From an uncultured Gammaproteobacteria bacterium (GTDB lineage: Bacteria; Patescibacteriota; Patescibacteriia; Magasanikbacterales; UBA922), in the NCBI GenBank assembly GCA_964345045.1, contig CAYFPM010000001.1, forward strand, positions 539,264 to 603,263: a stretch of 64,000 nt of DNA, in the 5' to 3' direction. The notes under the pieces were generated by a model. That model saw only the letters and a program-made list of their open reading frames with translations, did not search any database and was not told the origin of the DNA. This document shows positions 3,091 to 59,736 of the stretch, piece after piece. The position numbers were made by a program, and so were the translations under genes. Position 1 is the first letter of the stretch, and the number at the start of each line of letters is the position of its first letter.

Positions 3091-3285
3091 AAACTAAAAG
3101 TTGTTTGAGTTTTCTAAGTTTACTAAGTAACTAAAATAAAAAACTTAGTTAACTAAATAAACTTAGCCAACCTAGCAAACTTAGAATAAGTTATCCCCAT
3201 ACTACCCACTTTTTACCCAAAAATCAACCCTTGCCAAGAATATAGATTGCTGATAATGTGCCTATACAACCAAACACATTTATTG

Positions 3286-3400
3286 TGGAACTGGGGTTAG
3301 AGTCCCCGACTGTGCCGCAACGGTAAAGTCCTCCAACTACTTGAGAGGAACAAGTCCGATCTTCGATAAATGTGCCAATCCCGAGCAGGATAAAAAGTCA
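3286..3400 (+). ncRNA. candidate cobalamin (B12) riboswitch aptamer
   Basis: GGAACTGGGGTTAGAGTCCCCGACTGTGCCGCAACGGTAAAG resembles the E. coli btuB riboswitch core (GGGAATCCAGTGCGAATCTGGAGCTGACGCGCAGCGGTAAGG); the downstream genes are B12-binding-type proteins; the 3' B12-box half was not confidently recognised. Confidence 0.4.
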
Positions 3401-3423
3401 AAATAATTTGACCAAGTCTTAAA

Positions 3424-3448
3424 TCTCTGCTCGCAGCAGATTTTTTTA
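3424..3448 (+). terminator. intrinsic terminator immediately upstream of the 3455 ATG; likely the riboswitch expression platform
   Basis: TCTGCT-CGC-AGCAGA stem followed by TTTTTTT. Confidence 0.5.
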
Positions 3449-3454
3449 TTTAAA

Positions 3455-3895
3455 TTGCCTATGAAAAATTTTCTCAAAAACCACAAAGTGCATTTGGCCA
3501 TTTTTTTGGCTCTGGTAGCCATAGCTATAGTTTCTAACAATTACAGCACTAACAAAGAAAACAGCCCCCCGCAAATAATAAAAGAAGTAAGTACCTTATC
3601 GGCAACTATCCAGATAGAAAACGAGGATAGCCTGACAACCAAAATAAAAGAAGAAAGTACAGTTCTAGACTTAATGAAAAAATTAAAAGAAAAAGAGCGA
3701 CTAACTTTTGAAAGTAAGAATTTTGGATCGGGACTTGGAGAATATATCGAATCTATAAACGGTAAAAAAAGCACAGACAAAGAATTTTGGATTTACTACA
3801 TTAATAACAAAAAAGCTACAGTTGGTGTATCGACCTACAAACTGCAGCCAAATGACATAATAACTTGGAAATATGAACAAGATGAAACAAATTAG
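3455..3895 (+). CDS. DUF4430-domain secreted protein (transcobalamin beta-domain-like, putative B12 binder)
   Basis: signal peptide; C-terminal GxGLGEYIESINGKK...EFWIYYINNKKATVGVSTYKLQPNDIITWKY pattern typical of DUF4430. Confidence 0.55.
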   Translation: MPMKNFLKNHKVHLAIFLALVAIAIVSNNYSTNKENSPPQIIKEVSTLSATIQIENEDSLTTKIKEESTVLDLMKKLKEKERLTFESKNFGSGLGEYIESINGKKSTDKEFWIYYINNKKATVGVSTYKLQPNDIITWKYEQDETN

Positions 3896-5879
3896 TTTGG
3901 GGTTGGGTTTAATCACCCTATTGCTATGGCCAGGCAAAGAGGTACTAGCTGCCAACGAAATAGAAGTAAACGTACGAATAGAGGGACCTTCGGCCAATAT
4001 AGTTGATCAAGCTGTACAAATCCCAGATAGTTGTACAGTTACAGATTCTGCCGGAGGTACCCACACCTTTACCAATTACGAGGCTATCTGTGCTCTACAA
4101 GTACTAAAAGAAGCCGGTACCATTGATTTTCAAGCTACAGATTGGGGCTGGGCTATGGCACTAGACAGCATAACTAACATAAAAAATGCTAGTGATTGGA
4201 GTGAATCTTGGTTTATTCGTATAAATAGCGCTACTTCCAACTTTGGGATAGATTCTTTGGTACTTAATCCAAATGATCGTTTACTTTTGGGCTACGGTGG
4301 TTGGCCTTTTCCAGAACCATTACTTTTTGAAAAAACAGGTAATGCTGCCAAAATTGGAGATTCAGTTACCTTTGTCACAAAAATTTGGAATGACGACAAT
4401 GGAGGTTACGAAGATTATCAAAGTCCTGTTATTTTTTATCTAAAAGGAACTCCAATCTCATCGGAAAATGGAGAGATCACTTGGACAGTAGACACCATTG
4501 ACACTTTTCCTATTTGGGTAGAAGCAGTAGGAAAAATAAGAAGTCCCAAATATCAATTTGAACCAAAAGCTACAGAAGCTAATTACATTGGAAATCAAGT
4601 AGGACTAAATACCAAAGAAGCTGTTGATTTTCTAGAAAAAAATCAAAACAAAGACGGCTCATTTGCCAAAAACCAATTATTTTCCGACTGGGCCGCGATT
4701 GCTTTGTCTACACAAGACACCAACAATTCTGCCAGACAAAAAATCACTAACTATCTATTACAAGGAAGAAAACCCGGAAAAAATACTACAGATTACGAAA
4801 GAAGAGCTTTGGCACTTTTGACATTAGGAATTAATCCCTATGATGTAAATGGTAGAAATTATATAGAACCAATTGTAAATGATTTTGATGGAACTCAAAT
4901 TGGTAACAAAGATTATGTAAACGATGATATATTTGGGCTACTTGTCTTGAGAAAATCTGGATTTGATTTGAGGGAAGAAATAATAACAAAATTGACCAAC
5001 CATATTCTCTCTAACCAAAATAAAAATGGTTCTTGGGCAGAAAGCACAGATATGACCTCTGCTGCTATCCAAGCCCTTCAAACAGTAGAAGGAGCCACAA
5101 ATGTTTACGAAGCTTTGGAAAAAGCAAAAAGATATATAAGAACCCAACAAAAAACAAATGGTAGTTTCAACAACAGTGCCTACTCTACAACTTGGGCAAT
5201 ACAGGCAATTACCACTTTGGGAATGGATGCTTCTGACTGGTACAAAAACGACAATACTCCTGTAAATTATCTAGCCGCCTTGCAAGAGCCCGATGGAGGT
5301 TTGGGAAAAGATTCTCCTATTGAAATGAGGATTTGGTTAACTTCCTACGCTATTCCAGCTTCTTTAGGCAAAAGCTGGGCAGATTTGATGCATGAATTCC
5401 CAAAAGGAGAAATAAAAATAATTGAGAAAAAAGAAGAAACACAGGAAACTTTGGAAGAAACAAAAGAAGAAATAATCTCAGAAAAAACAGAACTTAATAT
5501 CAAAGAAAATATTAAAGAAGACACTGAACCTTTGGAACCTGAACCAAAATTAAGCGAAGAAGTTTTGAAATTAAAAATTGTAGAAGATATATCGGTAGAA
5601 GAACCTAAACAAAATATTATTAGCACAAACCAAATAGAAAGAGAAAGACCTGTAGAGATAGCAGAAGTTGTAGACAATCAAACCGAAGAAAAGATTATTG
5701 AAAACGAAGATCCTGTAATTCTGGAAACAGTATCTGCCGATGGTTCTGTACTGGCTGCTGCCGATAATTTGCCTACAGAAGGATCAAACAGCGCTAGAAA
5801 TGTATTTCGAACAGCTACTACCCTAGCCACCACCCTAGGAGCCTATTTGGCTTGGAGAGCCTTGCAGACTATAGTGTAA
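3873..5879 (+). CDS. surface protein: DUF4430-like domain + alpha/alpha-toroid (prenyltransferase/terpene-cyclase-like repeats), acidic linker, LPTEG sortase signal; transcobalamin-like
   Basis: signal peptide; repeats KDGSF/KNGSW/TNGSF/PDGGL with aromatic residues; LPTEG at 5769-5783 followed by a hydrophobic stretch and a basic tail. Confidence 0.55.
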   Translation: MNKMKQISLGLGLITLLLWPGKEVLAANEIEVNVRIEGPSANIVDQAVQIPDSCTVTDSAGGTHTFTNYEAICALQVLKEAGTIDFQATDWGWAMALDSITNIKNASDWSESWFIRINSATSNFGIDSLVLNPNDRLLLGYGGWPFPEPLLFEKTGNAAKIGDSVTFVTKIWNDDNGGYEDYQSPVIFYLKGTPISSENGEITWTVDTIDTFPIWVEAVGKIRSPKYQFEPKATEANYIGNQVGLNTKEAVDFLEKNQNKDGSFAKNQLFSDWAAIALSTQDTNNSARQKITNYLLQGRKPGKNTTDYERRALALLTLGINPYDVNGRNYIEPIVNDFDGTQIGNKDYVNDDIFGLLVLRKSGFDLREEIITKLTNHILSNQNKNGSWAESTDMTSAAIQALQTVEGATNVYEALEKAKRYIRTQQKTNGSFNNSAYSTTWAIQAITTLGMDASDWYKNDNTPVNYLAALQEPDGGLGKDSPIEMRIWLTSYAIPASLGKSWADLMHEFPKGEIKIIEKKEETQETLEETKEEIISEKTELNIKENIKEDTEPLEPEPKLSEEVLKLKIVEDISVEEPKQNIISTNQIERERPVEIAEVVDNQTEEKIIENEDPVILETVSADGSVLAAADNLPTEGSNSARNVFRTATTLATTLGAYLAWRALQTIV

Positions 5880-5911
5880 TAGTATATCCTGTAGAATATA
5901 AAATAAAAAAT

Positions 5912-6433
5912 ATGAAAAAAAATACTCTAATACTTACAGCCCTATTAATTGCTCTAGGCATTGCTGGTAGGCTACTCCCCCACCCGGCCAATTTTACTCC
6001 AGTAGCAGCGATTGCTCTTTTTGGAGCATTTTACCTGCCCAAACGCTGGGCTGTAGTTTTGCCTCTTTTGGCAATTTTGCTTAGTGATATCTTTATTGGT
6101 TTTTACAATCCAAAGATGATGATCGCTGTTTATGGTAGTTTTGCCATAACTGGTGCTATTGGTCTTTATTTCCGAGAGAAAAAAAGCTTTGCAACAGTAG
6201 CAGCTAGCACCTTGCTTGGTTCGATTATCTTTTTTCTGGTTACCAATGCCGCTGTTTGGGCCTTTGGCACTATGTATACCAAAGATTTAGCAGGACTCTT
6301 GAACAGCTATACCATGGCTATTCCATTTTTTAGAAATAGCTTACTTGGAAATGTGTTTTTTGTAAGTTTGTTGTTTGGTAGTATGGAAATGCTTTTATCC
6401 ACCCAAAAGAAAAAAGCTTCTCTAAAAACTTAA
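5912..6433 (+). CDS. small multi-TM membrane protein, ECF-transporter S-component-like (CbrT-like candidate)
   Basis: ~173 aa, 5-6 TM helices; sits in the putative B12 operon; start taken at MKKNTLIL (5912) rather than the upstream in-frame ORF start. Confidence 0.4.
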   Translation: MKKNTLILTALLIALGIAGRLLPHPANFTPVAAIALFGAFYLPKRWAVVLPLLAILLSDIFIGFYNPKMMIAVYGSFAITGAIGLYFREKKSFATVAASTLLGSIIFFLVTNAAVWAFGTMYTKDLAGLLNSYTMAIPFFRNSLLGNVFFVSLLFGSMEMLLSTQKKKASLKT

Positions 6434-6450
6434 TAAGATTTAAAAATAAA

Positions 6451-6480
6451 AAAACTCCAATGTAAAATTGGAGTTTTTTA
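6451..6480 (+). terminator. rho-independent terminator (CTCCAAT-GTAAA-ATTGGAG + TTTTTT)
   Basis: read directly in the sequence. Confidence 0.65.
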
Positions 6481-6694: not shown

Positions 6695-8137
6695 TTAACC
6701 AAACTTTACAGTATCCCCATAACCAACCATGTCTCCAGAATCTGTTCGATATTTGCCAGAAGTTGGAGTTTCTTTTTCTTCTGCTTCTTCTTCTGCTACT
6801 GGGGCTACTACCCCCTCTATAGGCAAACCCGGAGGAGGTTCGGCTCGCTTGCCTTGAGCTTTTTGGATAAGCGGTGTTTGTACATGAGACATTGGGAAAT
6901 GCCAAATCGTAGCCAATTCTTCTATGTTCATTATAAAAGGACTGCCTCCACTATTTATTTTTCTTTTCTTAAATGCTTTTACCAAAAGTTTTTTTCTATA
7001 AGATACTCGCTTATCCTTTAGGGCATAAGAAGTGGAGACCGTATACTTGGGTACAATCGAATTTGAACTAGGAATATTAAATTGATTAATAGCTCCAATC
7101 ATAGCTTGAACACCACGTTCTGGTCTAAATACTTCTTTTCTGGCCACATACCCCCCTCTAATCTTGGTTTTAAAGCCTATTTTTGCAATTTTGTTTTCCA
7201 TTGCTTCTACTAGCTTTACTTGCCCTGGTGTCATGTAACGTAATTTATTTGGCTCTCCACTATCGGAATCTTTGCTACTACCAGAAGCTTCTGCTACGCC
7301 TCCACCAGAGAGTTGAGCCCCTATTTCTGCCAAACCTTTGGTAATCTCATCTGCCAACAAATTATCTGTAAGCAAATCGACTGGGCTGGAAGAAGAAGAT
7401 TTGGTTTCTTCACCTATAAATTCTTTTATTTTTTTGATAGATTTTTCTTTCCAACTGTTTCCAGTTGGTTGGAGTAGAATTTGAAACCACATCTGCTCAC
7501 CAGGACCTATTCTACTAAAACTTTCCAAAAATGTTCCCATAGGATCTTTTAGAACTGTATCTTTGGAAATACTGTGTTCAAATTCTGTGTAAGAACGAAT
7601 TGGAAAAGCATCTGATTCTGCCAAGCCAAAATCCCCCATCCAAACATCGTGAGTGTCGTTGGGATATTCGGCTGGAATGTCTTTGGTATAGTCTTCTACT
7701 TCGATAATTTCTGCTTCTGGGTATTGGGCATAGATAGAAGCTTCTACCAAATCTCTAAATTTTGCTTCTGTTCTAACCAAAAACTGAATATAACCCTCTA
7801 TACTAACAACCTCAAAACTAAACCAGCGTTGTTTGTAACCTTGTCGAAATCTTTCTGCCAAATTTGGGGACTCGTAAACCCCGGCAATATGAGCAAACAT
7901 TTGTTCGACCGCTTTTGGAGTCTGAACGTTTAAAGCCGGGATATCTACTGCCAAAAGTACCCACTCCCAATTTTCTTTGTATTTTTCTTCTTTGTATTCT
8001 TCTAGATAATAAACTACCAAAAAAGCAAAAACCCAAAACATTAATATCCAACCAAAAAGCACAAAAAGCTGGTAGATTATAGCTCCAGTAGAATTAGTAC
8101 TAAAAAAATTAGCAATGGTATTGAAATCAAACTGCAT
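6695..8137 (-). CDS. conserved hypothetical membrane-anchored protein (N-terminal TM pair, large soluble domain)
   Basis: 480-aa ORF with coherent composition; no family recognised. Confidence 0.55.
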   Translation of the reverse strand: MQFDFNTIANFFSTNSTGAIIYQLFVLFGWILMFWVFAFLVVYYLEEYKEEKYKENWEWVLLAVDIPALNVQTPKAVEQMFAHIAGVYESPNLAERFRQGYKQRWFSFEVVSIEGYIQFLVRTEAKFRDLVEASIYAQYPEAEIIEVEDYTKDIPAEYPNDTHDVWMGDFGLAESDAFPIRSYTEFEHSISKDTVLKDPMGTFLESFSRIGPGEQMWFQILLQPTGNSWKEKSIKKIKEFIGEETKSSSSSPVDLLTDNLLADEITKGLAEIGAQLSGGGVAEASGSSKDSDSGEPNKLRYMTPGQVKLVEAMENKIAKIGFKTKIRGGYVARKEVFRPERGVQAMIGAINQFNIPSSNSIVPKYTVSTSYALKDKRVSYRKKLLVKAFKKRKINSGGSPFIMNIEELATIWHFPMSHVQTPLIQKAQGKRAEPPPGLPIEGVVAPVAEEEAEEKETPTSGKYRTDSGDMVGYGDTVKFG

Positions 8138-45985: not shown

Positions 45986-48900
45986 CTATACAACAACACT
46001 CACCAACCTCCCCTTCACATAAATCACCTTTTTCGGTTCTTTGCCCTCTAGCCATTTTATAACATTCTCTTGTTCTAGAGCTGTTTTCTTCACTTCTTCT
46101 TCACTAATTTCGGCTGGCACTTCTATAGTCGCCCGTACTTTACCATTTACCTGCACCGCGATTTTGACTACATCGTCGACTATTTTTTCTTTGTCATACT
46201 CTGGCCAAACGGATAGTGAAACAAATTCTTCAAATTCAAACATACCCGCAATCTCTTCGGCCAAATGCGGAGCAAATGGAGCCATTAATTTTTGCATGGC
46301 AATAACTGAACTGTAGTTCACTGTAGGAACTTCCTTAGTTCCAATATTCTTTCTTAGGATCATCAATTGGCTCACGGCAGTATTGAATCTCATTCCATCC
46401 AAATCTTCACCAATCTTCTTGATAGATTTGTGCAAAAGCTTTTCAAATTCTGGATTATTCTCACCCATGTACTCCCCATTTTTGTAAACTGCAAAATTGT
46501 CCCCTATATTTTCTTTTAGCTCTGCAAAGTAATCGTACCAACGATCCAAAAATCTGCGTACCCCTTTTACCCCGTCATCATTCCACGGCTTGGTCTGTTC
46601 TAGCGGCCCCATAAACATCTCGTAGGTACGCAAAGTGTCGGCTCCAAACTCATTAACTACATCAGTGGGGTTAATCACATTACCCCAGCGTTTACTCATC
46701 TTTCTATTATCTTCTCCCAATATAAGTCCTTGATGACGATTCTTGGTAAATGGCTCATCGAAATCAATGTAACCTGCATCAAATAAAACCTTGGTAAAAA
46801 AACGTGAGTATAAGAGGTGTCCATTGACATGCTCTTCTCCACCTAGGTAAAAATCTACTGGCATCCAAGCTTTCAAACTTTCTGGAGAAGCAAATTCATT
46901 TTCATTGTTTGGGTCTAGGTAACGGAAGTAATACCAAGAAGAACACATAAATGTATCCAATGTGTCTACCTCGCGCTTCCAACCTGCACCATATTTTTCC
47001 TCTACTCCTTTTTGAAATTCTTCGGAATATGTAAGTGGAGATTGACCAGTTGGTTTAAAATCTACGTCGCTTGGGAGTAATACTGGGAGATCTTTTTCTG
47101 GAACTGGTTTCAAACCAGAAACAAATACTTCTTCCAAAATTGCCGGCTCTACCAAACCAGTCAAATGATCTTCGTTTGCACTGGCATACACTACTCTTGC
47201 ATCAAAGATATTTACTTGTTCGTCTATTTGTTCTTTTTTGATTATAGGATAATTTTTGTCTGCAATAACAACTGTTTCTTGTGGTAAATCTTTTATTGAA
47301 GCAAAATCAAATTGTAATTTTGCTTCATCACGAAATTCTCTTTCTTTTCCATCATTAAATTCTGGTCTTAGCATGGTATCTATCAATACCAATTTGGCAA
47401 TAGGCTGTTTGGTTTTTGCCAAAAGATGAAATGCCACTGGACCACCATGGCTATGAGCTACCACAACGGTATCTTTGTCCAATTTTATATTTTCAAATAA
47501 ATAATTGGCCTGTTCTGTGGCATTTGGTATTTCTGTATTTGGCAAATCTAGCACCACAACTTTGTGACCTTTTGCTTCTACTTGTGCTTTTAACCACGGC
47601 CAAAAATCTGACTCTGCTGTACCACCTCGTCCATGAATAAAAACATATTGTCTTTTGCTCTCTGCTTCTTGTTCATTGACCAGAATTGGCAATGGTGCTC
47701 CCCAAAAACGCTGGCGAGACACAGACCAATCGCGGAGTTTGTATTGAACTTTACTTTCTCCGTAACCACCATCTACAATCTTTTGCAAAATCTTTTTTCT
47801 ACCTTCCTCATAATCAAATCCATCAAATTCTTCTGAATTTATCAATTTAAACTTCTTTTTGTCTTTTTTTATCTCTGCGTAGCTTACAAACTCTTCTTTT
47901 GAATCCACCACACTTATAACTTCCAAACCAAACTTCTTGGCAAATTCATAATCACGTTCGTCTGCTCCAGGCACAGCCATAATAGAACCAGTTCCATAGG
48001 TAGCCAAAACATAATCTGAAATCCACACTGAAATTTCTTTACCGTTTATAGGATTAATAGCTTTTATTCCCTTTAGTTCTACTCCGGTCTTTTCTTTTTG
48101 GGTTTGTCTATCTAATTCTGTTTTCTTGGAAGTTTCTTTTATATACTTTTCAACTTCATCAATATTTTCAACAATTGTTTCTTGTTTCTTGCCTGCCCCG
48201 TTAGCTTGTCTTTCGGGGTTTCTTGTTTCTTCGAGAAGCGTAGCGACGAGCTCATGCTCTGGTGCCAAAACCATAAAAGAAACTCCGTAGATAGTGTCGT
48301 GAGCGGTGGTAAAGACTGGAATTCTGAATTCTGAATTCTGAATTTCAAAATCAATCTCTGCTCCTTCCGAACGCCCAATCCAATTCCTCTGTCTCATCTT
48401 TGTCTCCTCTGGCCAATCAATCTTATCAAGATCTGCCAAAAGTCTGTCGGCATAATCAGTAATTTTCAAATACCATTGCTCCATTTCTTTTTGCACTACC
48501 ACGTCATCACTACGTTCACACTTACCATCTACCACTTGCTCGTTGGCCAGAACTGTTTTACAACCATCACACCAGTTTACACTTTGCTTTTTTCTATAAG
48601 CCAAACCACGCTCGTACATAAGAAGAAAAAACCACTGGGTGAATTTGTAATACCCAGGATCAGAACTACGCACAAACCTATCCCAATCAACCGAAATTCC
48701 AAGAGACTTTACTTGAGACACAAACATCTCACCAGTTTTGTCGATAGTTTCTCTGGGGTGTACATTAGTCTTAATTGCATAATTCTCGGCTGGCAAACCA
48801 AAAGAATCCAAACCAAAAACTTGAAGGACTTTCTTACCCTTCATACGCAAGTAACGAGCATAAATATCGCAGGCAGTATAAACCTCGGCATGGCCTACAT

Positions 48901-49048
48901 GCAGCCCAGATCCAGATGGGTACGGCAGCTGTGGCAGCACATAAGCTTTGTTTTCGGGGGTAGCATCGGCTGGAGTCTTGAACACCTCTTCTTCTTCCCA
49001 TATCTCTTGCCACTTAGCCTCTATCTCTTTTGGGTTATATTCTTTCAT
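45986..49048 (-). CDS. leuS: leucyl-tRNA synthetase with an inserted YdeN/RBBP9-like serine hydrolase domain
   Basis: HVGH class-I motif, CP1 editing domain, KMSKS; residues ~458-645 (YVFIHGRGG...DFWPW...VVAHSHGG) match the Ser_hydrolase fold. Confidence 0.95.
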   Translation of the reverse strand: MKEYNPKEIEAKWQEIWEEEEVFKTPADATPENKAYVLPQLPYPSGSGLHVGHAEVYTACDIYARYLRMKGKKVLQVFGLDSFGLPAENYAIKTNVHPRETIDKTGEMFVSQVKSLGISVDWDRFVRSSDPGYYKFTQWFFLLMYERGLAYRKKQSVNWCDGCKTVLANEQVVDGKCERSDDVVVQKEMEQWYLKITDYADRLLADLDKIDWPEETKMRQRNWIGRSEGAEIDFEIQNSEFRIPVFTTAHDTIYGVSFMVLAPEHELVATLLEETRNPERQANGAGKKQETIVENIDEVEKYIKETSKKTELDRQTQKEKTGVELKGIKAINPINGKEISVWISDYVLATYGTGSIMAVPGADERDYEFAKKFGLEVISVVDSKEEFVSYAEIKKDKKKFKLINSEEFDGFDYEEGRKKILQKIVDGGYGESKVQYKLRDWSVSRQRFWGAPLPILVNEQEAESKRQYVFIHGRGGTAESDFWPWLKAQVEAKGHKVVVLDLPNTEIPNATEQANYLFENIKLDKDTVVVAHSHGGPVAFHLLAKTKQPIAKLVLIDTMLRPEFNDGKEREFRDEAKLQFDFASIKDLPQETVVIADKNYPIIKKEQIDEQVNIFDARVVYASANEDHLTGLVEPAILEEVFVSGLKPVPEKDLPVLLPSDVDFKPTGQSPLTYSEEFQKGVEEKYGAGWKREVDTLDTFMCSSWYYFRYLDPNNENEFASPESLKAWMPVDFYLGGEEHVNGHLLYSRFFTKVLFDAGYIDFDEPFTKNRHQGLILGEDNRKMSKRWGNVINPTDVVNEFGADTLRTYEMFMGPLEQTKPWNDDGVKGVRRFLDRWYDYFAELKENIGDNFAVYKNGEYMGENNPEFEKLLHKSIKKIGEDLDGMRFNTAVSQLMILRKNIGTKEVPTVNYSSVIAMQKLMAPFAPHLAEEIAGMFEFEEFVSLSVWPEYDKEKIVDDVVKIAVQVNGKVRATIEVPAEISEEEVKKTALEQENVIKWLEGKEPKKVIYVKGRLVSVVV

Positions 49049-58485: not shown

Positions 58486-59736
58486 GTGTCTCACGAGAAG
58501 GAAGGGCCTCGAAGGCCAATCGACATCATCCAAGAATACTCACTCCCGCTCATCGCGGGGGTGATCGGTGCAATGTTGTGGGCCAATCTGAGCCCACACT
58601 CCTACCACGAGTTCATCCACTTCTCTCCGTTCGCGGAGGGGAACCCCCTGCACGTACTGAACTTCCACTTCCTGATGAACGACTTCGTGATGGTCTTCTT
58701 CTTCGGAATCGCTACCAAGGAGATCACCGAAGCCTGCCTCCCCGAAGGAGACCTCAACCCTCCGAGGAAGGCAGTGAACCCGCTGCTGGGAACGCTGGGA
58801 GGAGTGATTGGACCCATCGCGGTCTACAAACTCTACGTCTACTTCACGGGTGCCGAAGCCATCAGCGAAGGCTGGGGCATCCCCACCGCAACTGACATCG
58901 CGCTCGCGTGGCTACTGGCTCGTGTAGTTTTCGGGAAGAATCACCCAGCAGTGAGCTTCCTGCTCCTGTTGGCCGTGGCCGACGACGGACTCGGACTCGG
59001 CATCATCGCCGTCTTCTACCCAGATCCTTCCCACCCGGTGCAGCCAGCCTACTTGGTACTGGTGGCCATCGCCATGGCTGGCGCGTACTACTTGCGAAGG
59101 AAGAATGTACAGAACTACGGGGTCTACCTCGTAGGGCCAGGAGTTCTCTCCTGGGCCGGCCTTTTCCTGGCACACCTCCACCCAGCGCTCGCGCTGGTGT
59201 TCGTGGTTCCTTTCTTGCCCAACATGGGTCATGACGACGGCATGTACGCGGAGATGAGTACTGGAAAAACGTACCTCGATCCGCTCAACAAGTTCGAACA
59301 CGCTGTCAAGCTGCCAGTGGATCTCGGACTCTTCGGGTTCGGCCTGGCCAACGCTGGGGTGGAGTTCTCGAGCATGGGTCATGGTACCTGGGCAGTTCTG
59401 GCCGGGCTGCTACTCGGCAAGACTGTAGGTATCTTCGGCTTCTCGATGCTCGGCCACCTGAGTGGCAAGGCGCCCCTCCCCGAAGGGATGCGCTGGAACC
59501 ACTTGCTGGTCGCCGGCATCGTGGCAGGTCTCGGTCTGACCGTAGCTCTGTTCGTGGCAGGAGTCGCGTTCACCGAACCTATGTTGCAGGGTGCGGCCAA
59601 GATGGGTGCACTGCTTTCGGCATTCATTGCCCCCATCGCGGTCGTGGCAGGTTTCGTCCTGCGTGTGAAGGACGAAGACAAATCACCCGTCGATCTGAGC
59701 AGTGCTGCCGAAGCGCCAGCCACCAGCAGCAGCTGA
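58486..59736 (+). CDS. nhaA: Na+/H+ antiporter NhaA (GTG start); GC-rich island gene
   Basis: GIPTATDIALAWLLA and LLLLAVADDGLGLGIIAVFY signatures; SD AAGAGGAG at 58471-58478. Confidence 0.85.
   Translation: MSHEKEGPRRPIDIIQEYSLPLIAGVIGAMLWANLSPHSYHEFIHFSPFAEGNPLHVLNFHFLMNDFVMVFFFGIATKEITEACLPEGDLNPPRKAVNPLLGTLGGVIGPIAVYKLYVYFTGAEAISEGWGIPTATDIALAWLLARVVFGKNHPAVSFLLLLAVADDGLGLGIIAVFYPDPSHPVQPAYLVLVAIAMAGAYYLRRKNVQNYGVYLVGPGVLSWAGLFLAHLHPALALVFVVPFLPNMGHDDGMYAEMSTGKTYLDPLNKFEHAVKLPVDLGLFGFGLANAGVEFSSMGHGTWAVLAGLLLGKTVGIFGFSMLGHLSGKAPLPEGMRWNHLLVAGIVAGLGLTVALFVAGVAFTEPMLQGAAKMGALLSAFIAPIAVVAGFVLRVKDEDKSPVDLSSAAEAPATSSS

Follow-up and report, generated by a model that had tools for sequence, protein, structure and literature searches.

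A putative riboswitch-controlled cobalamin scavenging operon with transcobalamin-type capture proteins in Patescibacteria

The stretch of DNA considered here, a window of 64,000 nt from contig CAYFPM010000001.1 (539,264-603,263, forward strand; all coordinates below are positions within this window), contains a leader and three close-packed genes at 3260-6480 on the + strand, with a strong bidirectional hairpin at the end. The open reading frames (ORFs) encode a protein with a single DUF4430/SLBB domain (ORF1), a larger protein in which such a domain is combined with an alpha/alpha toroid (ORF2), and a small membrane protein of the family DUF6580 (ORF3), and the leader resembles a cobalamin riboswitch. 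The original prediction for this region, made from the DNA sequence alone, was a riboswitch-controlled operon for the capture of vitamin B12 (cobalamin) with a sortase-anchored, transcobalamin-like protein. None of the three proteins carries a name in public sources. In the literature searched, no mention of DUF6580 was found, and nothing on cobalamin riboswitches in bacteria of the candidate phyla radiation (CPR) or on energy-coupling factor (ECF) transporters in Patescibacteria/CPR. The background of the window is low-GC Patescibacteria DNA encoding SecA, SecDF, LeuRS, IF-2, MurB/C, ComEC, and SHMT. For comparison, a set of 80 loci from species-level genomes with DUF6580 was compiled by profile search; nearly all of these belong to Patescibacteria, they comprise about 1.1 Mb in total, and the closest relatives of the operon are found in Candidatus Magasanikbacteria.

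The leader at 3275-3374 (+) matches the Rfam family RF01482, the adenosylcobalamin (AdoCbl) class of the cobalamin clan CL00101, with 42.9 bits (E 9.4e-7) in a permissive cmscan of a 391-nt stretch, in which two more families of the clan match less well. The aptamer consists of an outer stem (3275-3284/3365-3374), the helices P4, P5, and P6, and a B12-box-like element, AAGUCCGAUCUUC. When the 80 loci were searched by nhmmer with the window leader, about 30 homologous leaders were obtained, each of which shares the strand of the genes and immediately precedes the first DUF4430 gene. Given these homologs at the same position, the leader is confirmed as more than a chance feature. Three of the homologs (L024, L010, and L061) reach 55.8, 52.0, and 51.9 bits for RF01482 over model positions 1-149 and thereby exceed the gathering score of 50 bits. 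In a MAFFT alignment of 22 leaders, with pairs taken from the Rfam-derived structure, 85.7% of the cells hold standard pairs and 17 of the 25 pairs show changes on both sides, the remaining pairs being invariant. The covariation score of 0.414 was reached by none of 500 shuffles (0.168 ± 0.017), and slid controls gave 0.135 at most. Because homologous leaders pass the gathering score and covariation supports the helices, the window leader is best regarded as belonging to a well-supported riboswitch subfamily, although its own score falls slightly short of the threshold. A cobalamin riboswitch had been predicted for this position, with RF00174 as the family to be expected; the resemblance and the clan were borne out, while the best family is RF01482, at a score below its threshold.

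This subfamily shares with RF01482 the core junction, the conserved GGAA…GCCGCAAC…AGUCCG elements, and the helices, whereas its invariant CCCGAGCAGGA element appears in cmscan as an insertion before the 3' hairpin of the model. Helix P6 is variable and is missing in two members of the alignment. The riboswitches at L051 (4520-4615) and L055 (5220-5315) lack the distal P6 stem, with GGUAA joined straight to AAGUCCG, which shows that the subfamily can do without this helix. The outer stem is preceded at a distance of about 5 nt by a TACAAC box (3265-3270, +), which is conserved as TACAAT in most of the related leaders and was missed by a sigma-70 consensus scan. This box is probably the -10 element of the promoter, and transcription would then begin right at the aptamer boundary.

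The aptamer is followed by an intrinsic terminator (3426-3447, +), which was identified by a terminator scan and had been predicted at the first ATG. It consists of the hairpin UCUGCU-CGC-AGCAGA (3426-3440) and a T7 run (3441-3447; U7 in the transcript) and lies 14 nt before the ATG of ORF1 at 3461. A hairpin of 6-8 bp followed by T5-8 ends all of the 28 homologous leaders examined. Between aptamer and terminator, leader alignment, duplex energies, and the minimum free energy (MFE) fold reveal an antiterminator strand, CCCGAGCAGG (3380-3389, +), which is invariant in the 22 aligned leaders, near-invariant and present in all 28, and complementary to the 5' arm and the loop of the terminator. 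Over the 28 leaders, the predicted antiterminator duplex has a mean energy of -15.3 kcal/mol (z -3.2 versus shuffled motif) compared with -6.4 kcal/mol for the terminator hairpin alone, and the MFE fold of the full window leader contains the antiterminator helix. The stronger antiterminator duplex, which is also the one formed in the MFE fold, makes read-through the default, so that the terminator has to be released by ligand binding. Read-through in the absence of ligand is the logic expected of an uptake operon that is repressed by its product. At the other end of the operon, the terminator scan revealed a 13-bp hairpin with A- and T-run flanks (6449-6479), a bidirectional terminator that closes both the operon and the convergent gene.

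ORF1 (3461-3895, +) encodes a protein of 144 amino acids with a hydrophobic N-terminus and one DUF4430/SLBB domain. It matches PF14478 (DUF4430) with an E-value of 6.5e-18 and 65.4 bits (cut-off 23.8), and in a PDB search it directly matches the beta domain of human transcobalamin (5no0, E 1.3e-3). The hydrophobic residues 7-30 are a candidate for an anchor or signal sequence. These results agree with the predicted secreted DUF4430 protein of the transcobalamin beta type.

ORF2 (3873-5879, +) overlaps ORF1 by 23 nt and encodes a protein of 668 amino acids consisting of a signal peptide, an SLBB domain, a beta-sandwich, an alpha/alpha toroid, a disordered stalk, and a C-terminal helix. An AlphaFold model built from 101 homologs has domains with a pLDDT (predicted local distance difference test) above 90 and two short C-terminal helices. 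Pfam matches are SQHop_cyclase_C (2.9e-7), Prenyltrans (1.3e-4), Cobalamin_bind (1.5e-4), and DUF4430 (2.3e-4, residues 75-141). The DUF4430 match, which lies within the SLBB domain (residues 29-145; 3957-4307, +), has a score of 22.0 bits, just below the cut-off of 23.8. When the family profile was compared with the PDB, its positions 55-159 matched the beta domains of haptocorrin (4kki, E 1.2e-6) and intrinsic factor (E 1e-3). The SLBB domain is followed by an all-beta domain, a beta-sandwich (residues 149-230; 4317-4562, +), for which strands are modelled at 149-229 with a pLDDT of 84-96.

The toroid of ORF2 (residues 247-505; 4611-5387, +) has four repeats of the motif Q-x2-3-(D/N)G(S/G)(W/F/L), and KDGSF, KNGSW, TNGSF, and PDGGL are seen in the protein. 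In a Foldseek search it matches squalene-hopene cyclase (8pak, 2.9e-7), transcobalamin (2v3n, 9.3e-6), and haptocorrin (4kki, 2.7e-5), with small squalene-hopene cyclases and drimenyl-diphosphate synthase (about 1e-7 to 1e-6) ranking before transcobalamin and haptocorrin (about 1e-5). The toroid part of the family profile matches squalene-hopene cyclase in the PDB with an E-value of 5e-13. Precomputed matches to PF01122 (Cobalamin_bind) are present on several ORF2 homologs. The toroid fold is confirmed; by itself it is no proof of a B12 binder, and the B12-specific marker is the beta domain. For the predicted combination of a DUF4430-like N-domain with toroid repeats in a 668-residue protein, Pfam, AlphaFold, and Foldseek are in agreement.

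The C-terminal part of ORF2 consists of an E/K-rich low-complexity stalk (residues 506-640; 5388-5792, +), which is disordered with a pLDDT below 50, and a helix (residues 641-668; 5793-5876, +) ending in …LGAYLAWRALQTIV, which was recognized by comparison of about 30 homologs. The last approximately 28 residues are conserved as a small-residue-rich helix with the pattern (T)A(K/R)x(V/I)(F/L)…A…LG(A/L)YL(A/G)(W/L)R(F/L)(L/I)(Q/K). This helix is kept across homologs whose stalks cannot be aligned, and in the 1.1 Mb of related loci it is found on toroid proteins only. It is presumed to be a family-specific membrane anchor or docking helix. Other members of the ORF2 family have different conserved tails, …LWxxIxSFFxxLF or …PFVWLWxHLGF, and the conserved tails of the family may be partner-docking or sorting elements.

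ORF3 (5912-6433, +) starts 33 nt past the end of ORF2 and encodes a membrane protein of 173 amino acids with five strongly hydrophobic segments. It matches PF20221 (DUF6580) with an E-value of 2.4e-50; according to Pfam, this is a family of unknown function, and it occurs in at least 584 species-level genomes, mostly of Patescibacteria. DUF6580 is highly conserved, with 53-64% identity to ORF3 among 37 aligned homologs, and has an invariant loop, RLLPHPxNFxP. No invariant cysteine is found among 38 DUF6580 sequences, and ORF3 has no cysteine at all. The AlphaFold model of ORF3 (pLDDT 91.8) shows the six-helix fold of S-components, and its best structural match is BtuM, with TM-scores of 0.65-0.69 in Foldseek. 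As judged from the model, ORF3 has an S-component fold whose nearest counterparts are BtuM and CbrT, both of them B12 transporters. BtuM of Thiobacillus denitrificans has an invariant cobalt-ligating cysteine, Cys80 (PMC6072759). As this defining ligand is missing in ORF3, the protein is not a member of the BtuM family, and an invariant histidine is a candidate ligand in the cysteine-free DUF6580 proteins.

The gene neighborhood in the related genomes is the strongest evidence for function, and it ties the gene set to B12 independently. A DUF4430 gene directly precedes the DUF6580 gene on the same strand in about 63 of the 80 loci, and a toroid gene is present in about 43. The layout of the window, consisting of riboswitch, SLBB gene, (SLBB-)toroid gene, an optional third small SLBB gene, and DUF6580, is found in 28 loci. 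In toroid-free loci, the SLBB-DUF6580 pair lies just downstream of genes for a ribonucleotide reductase (RNR) with a TSCPD domain (13 loci), the corrinoid adenosyltransferase BtuR/CobA (10 loci), or NrdR (7 loci). An RNR with a TSCPD domain has the architecture of the class II, AdoCbl-dependent NrdJ. In loci of other types, riboswitches of RF00174 (L056, L030, and L062) and RF01689 (L049) lie immediately upstream of the cluster, and all four matches exceed the curated Rfam cut-offs. Since three riboswitch classes, a B12-dependent enzyme, and a B12-activating enzyme converge on these genes, the gene set is linked to B12.

Two further proteins occur in the neighborhood of the system. A 165-amino-acid protein without a Pfam match (cluster 15) is encoded between the toroid and SLBB genes in L030 (2586-3083), L033, L038, L039, L042, L052, and L064. 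These loci represent a third layout (toroid, cluster 15, SLBB, DUF6580), in which BtuR is sometimes encoded first, and the protein may be an additional part of the system. In the window, a convergent gene for a 480-amino-acid protein (6695-8137, -) with a precomputed match to PF26449 (DUF8128) lies directly downstream of the DUF6580 gene. The same arrangement is found in about 27 related loci, which may reflect plain synteny or a functional link.

Taken together, the locus is likely to be a cobalamin (corrinoid) scavenging operon of Patescibacteria that is controlled by a riboswitch and combines transcobalamin-type capture with S-component-like import. The identity and structure of the riboswitch, the potential for terminator and antiterminator pairing, the domains and folds of the proteins, and the gene linkage are directly supported by the analysis, and from these we infer the following course of ligand binding, hand-over, and anchoring, as well as the mode of energization. 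Transcription would start just upstream of the AdoCbl-class riboswitch. Without ligand, CCCGAGCAGG would occupy the terminator's 5' arm by base pairing, and all three genes would be transcribed. With intracellular cobalamin bound in the aptamer, CCCGAGCAGG would be sequestered, the hairpin with U7 would form, and transcription would stop 14 nt before ORF1. ORF2 would leave the cell but stay attached to its surface through the C-terminal helix and a flexible stalk of about 130 residues, and there it would capture B12, either in the space between its toroid and its beta domain of the transcobalamin type or by means of both. ORF1, a membrane-proximal single beta domain, may be the obligatory partner through which the corrinoid passes to ORF3, the putative S-component-like transporter that would carry it across the membrane. 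The imported vitamin would then be adenosylated and used by class II RNR, and genes for both functions are clustered with the DUF6580 transporter in other lineages. The core of the original prediction, namely a riboswitch, transcobalamin-type proteins, and an S-component-like transporter in one B12 capture operon, is retained in this model, whereas the sortase anchor is not supported and the designation as a full transcobalamin-like protein was overstated.

Several observations weigh against this interpretation. The RF01482 score of the window leader lies below the gathering score, for which reason a scan of the whole 64-kb window at gathering thresholds reported no riboswitch; no other Rfam family was reported at this level, and the window has no tRNA gene. 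A by-eye check for a kissing-loop partner of loop L5 in CCCGAGCAGG revealed no convincing complementarity, and covariation is uninformative on the sequestration of CCCGAGCAGG because both elements are invariant. In sequence as well as in fold, the toroid of ORF2 resembles squalene-hopene cyclases more than transcobalamin, and its match to PF01122 is restricted to residues 392-455 and scores 21.3 bits against a cut-off of 25. For ORF3, the originally suggested relation to CbrT was recovered only marginally: the DUF6580 profile has 6fnp_A (CbrT) as its sole PDB match (E 0.048, 16.4 bits), and a PDB search with the single ORF3 sequence gave no matches. Finally, the 64-kb window contains no genes for a B12-dependent enzyme, an adenosyltransferase, or an ECF module, so that the demand for B12 in this genome has to be deduced from the relatives.

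The best matches of the toroid in sequence and fold, which are squalene-hopene cyclases, drimenyl-diphosphate synthase, and complement TED domains, would be in line with a terpene cyclase/prenyltransferase enzyme or a thioester/TED-like surface protein that is merely co-transcribed and unrelated to B12. However, the catalytic motifs DxDD and DDxxD are both absent from ORF2 and are not conserved in the family, where they occur anywhere in only 19 and 9 of the 101 members, respectively. The lack of these motifs in an exported protein argues against an enzymatic role. In addition, the toroid is fused to a B12-type SLBB domain, and in about 28 loci its gene is flanked by SLBB and DUF6580 genes in clusters controlled by cobalamin riboswitches. 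A function of the toroid unrelated to B12 is therefore extremely improbable, and the enzyme reading was rejected for want of a catalytic motif. Neither the toroid nor the SLBB fold specifies the ligand by itself, and for the ECF-like system lsa1836-1840 of Lactobacillus sakei, with its transcobalamin alpha- and beta-like subunits, import of heme has been claimed and heme has been modelled in the transcobalamin-like subunits (bioRxiv 10.1101/864751). Import of heme or another tetrapyrrole by the present operon is nevertheless very improbable, given a cobalamin-class riboswitch at this locus, two other cobalamin classes elsewhere, and the clustering of the transporter with genes for NrdJ-type RNR and corrinoid adenosyltransferase. 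Moreover, hemin does not inhibit ECF-CbrT (PMC5997447). Covalent attachment of ORF2 to the cell wall by a sortase had been deduced from the sequence LPTEG (5769-5783), which lies within the stalk and is followed by a 31-residue helical tail with Arg residues. The idea gains from the presence of NLPLDT or NLPIDT at the same place in a subset of relatives and from the Gram-positive anchors described for some bacterial SLBB proteins (Burroughs et al. 2007, PMC1796856). However, LPTEG has E at position 4 and is not LPXTG, and the closest homologs have TLPLSK or LPAEN at this site and many others nothing, so that it is the tail and not the motif that is conserved, unlike in sortase signals. Although the motif and tail are present as had been predicted, the tail is weakly hydrophobic in the window copy (mean Kyte-Doolittle value 0.35), and the basic residues of the relatives precede the helix rather than follow it. 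No soluble TLxTC protein is encoded in the 64-kb window, in which the sole TLxTC match lies inside SecD. Sortase anchoring, which was rejected because of the unconserved motif, the weak hydropathy, and the lack of a TLxTC sortase in the window, is thus very unlikely.

The energization of uptake concerns the nature of ORF3 within the B12 scavenging operon. The genes of group II ECF S-components do not usually lie next to those of their module, so that a module could be encoded elsewhere in the genome. ORF3 could then be a conventional group II S-component on a shared EcfA-EcfA'-EcfT module, driven by ATP as CbrT is, and this is a real possibility, though less likely than not. It is opposed by the lack of EcfA/EcfT genes and of any protein with Walker A and LSGGQ motifs in the 64-kb window, and by the presence of only one ATP-binding cassette (ABC) ATPase of this kind within 8 kb of the 80 related loci (1.1 Mb). 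The predicted ECF-S-like character of ORF3 therefore holds for the fold, but not for an accompanying module, which is missing in the window and near 79 of the 80 loci. The best structural match, BtuM, has an S-component fold and imports B12 alone without a module, which solitary CbrT cannot do (PMC6072759, PMC5997447). We tend towards the view that DUF6580, like BtuM, works with no ECF module of its own, although its ligand chemistry would differ. A more far-reaching proposal can only be put forward tentatively: DUF6580 may be a third, so far unrecognized type of S-component-like B12 transporter, which is cysteine-free, possibly ligates cobalt by the invariant His of RLLPHPxNFxP, works without a module, and depends on a dedicated extracellular relay of beta-domain proteins of the transcobalamin type, with the helix-docked toroid protein as an outer trap of high affinity. 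Such a system would be the main route of B12 to class II RNR in Patescibacteria, which are unable to synthesize the vitamin, and a living bacterial counterpart of animal transcobalamin and intrinsic factor.

Several known systems resemble the operon in parts. CbrT (PDB 6FNP), the S-component of the ECF vitamin B12 transporter of Lactobacillus delbrueckii (PMC5997447), is dedicated to cobalamin and is, like ORF3, a small S-component-type membrane protein, and the NrdR-NrdJ-BtuR-SLBB-DUF6580 clusters of other Patescibacteria mirror the nrdJ-cbrS-cbrT-pduO cluster of Lactobacillus (PMC5997447). Apart from the marginal sequence similarity and the missing module, ORF3 differs from CbrT in that its gene follows one to three genes for extracellular proteins of the transcobalamin type and is controlled by a riboswitch. 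BtuM (PDB 8ovv, 8c7p), which shares no detectable sequence similarity with ORF3, is proteobacterial and linked to BtuB, whereas ORF3 is found in Patescibacteria.

The animal B12 carriers transcobalamin, intrinsic factor, and haptocorrin (PF01122 and PF14478) sandwich B12 between two modules, an alpha/alpha toroid and an SLBB domain of the beta-grasp type. ORF2 has the same two modules, and its beta domain is detectably homologous. The original designation as a full transcobalamin-like protein nevertheless has to be qualified, because the order is reversed in ORF2 (beta domain, beta-sandwich, toroid) compared with the toroid-first animal proteins, a beta-sandwich is added, and the PF01122 match stays below the cut-off. 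In addition, the operon encodes a second, separate beta-domain protein, ORF1, and ORF2 is predicted to be tethered to the surface, whereas the animal proteins are soluble. Closest in architecture are secreted bacterial and archaeal proteins with SLBB domains fused N- or C-terminally to an alpha/alpha toroid, for which Burroughs, Balaji, Iyer and Aravind (2007) predicted a function in the uptake of B12-like cofactors (PMC1796856). ORF2 belongs to the same architecture class. Those proteins were described for Firmicutes and some archaea without mention of riboswitches (PMC1796856), whereas the present ones occur in Patescibacteria with a riboswitch and have a family-specific C-terminal helix in place of an LPXTG anchor.

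Thus, the kind of system is already known or predicted. What appears to be new is the assignment of DUF6580 to B12, the role of DUF4430 proteins as its obligate partners, a riboswitch subfamily marked by an invariant antiterminator strand, and the distribution of the system across Patescibacteria. Four independent ties to B12, namely three riboswitch classes, the NrdJ/BtuR/NrdR neighbors, the obligate DUF4430 partner, and the BtuM/CbrT-like fold, provide DUF6580 with a function that can be put to the test. In addition, they point to a way in which CPR bacteria, ultra-small and auxotrophic as they are, may obtain the cofactor for the synthesis of DNA precursors. Bacterial transcobalamin-like proteins, in which beta domain and toroid occur both fused and separate, could be used for testing whether the animal B12 carriers originated from bacterial surface proteins.

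Two features of the window outside the operon were also noted. GC-rich islands (0.50-0.56, compared with 0.35-0.40 for the genome) are located at 1-2000, encoding a 393-amino-acid ORF (768-1949) without a Pfam match, and at 58486-59736, encoding an NhaA Na+/H+ antiporter; these islands possibly reflect horizontal acquisition or, at the start of the window, an assembly chimera. The leucyl-tRNA synthetase (1020 amino acids; 45986-49048, -) contains an alpha/beta-hydrolase insert (PF00561, PF12697, PF06821) at residues 469-623, which sits after the editing domain and represents an unusual fusion.

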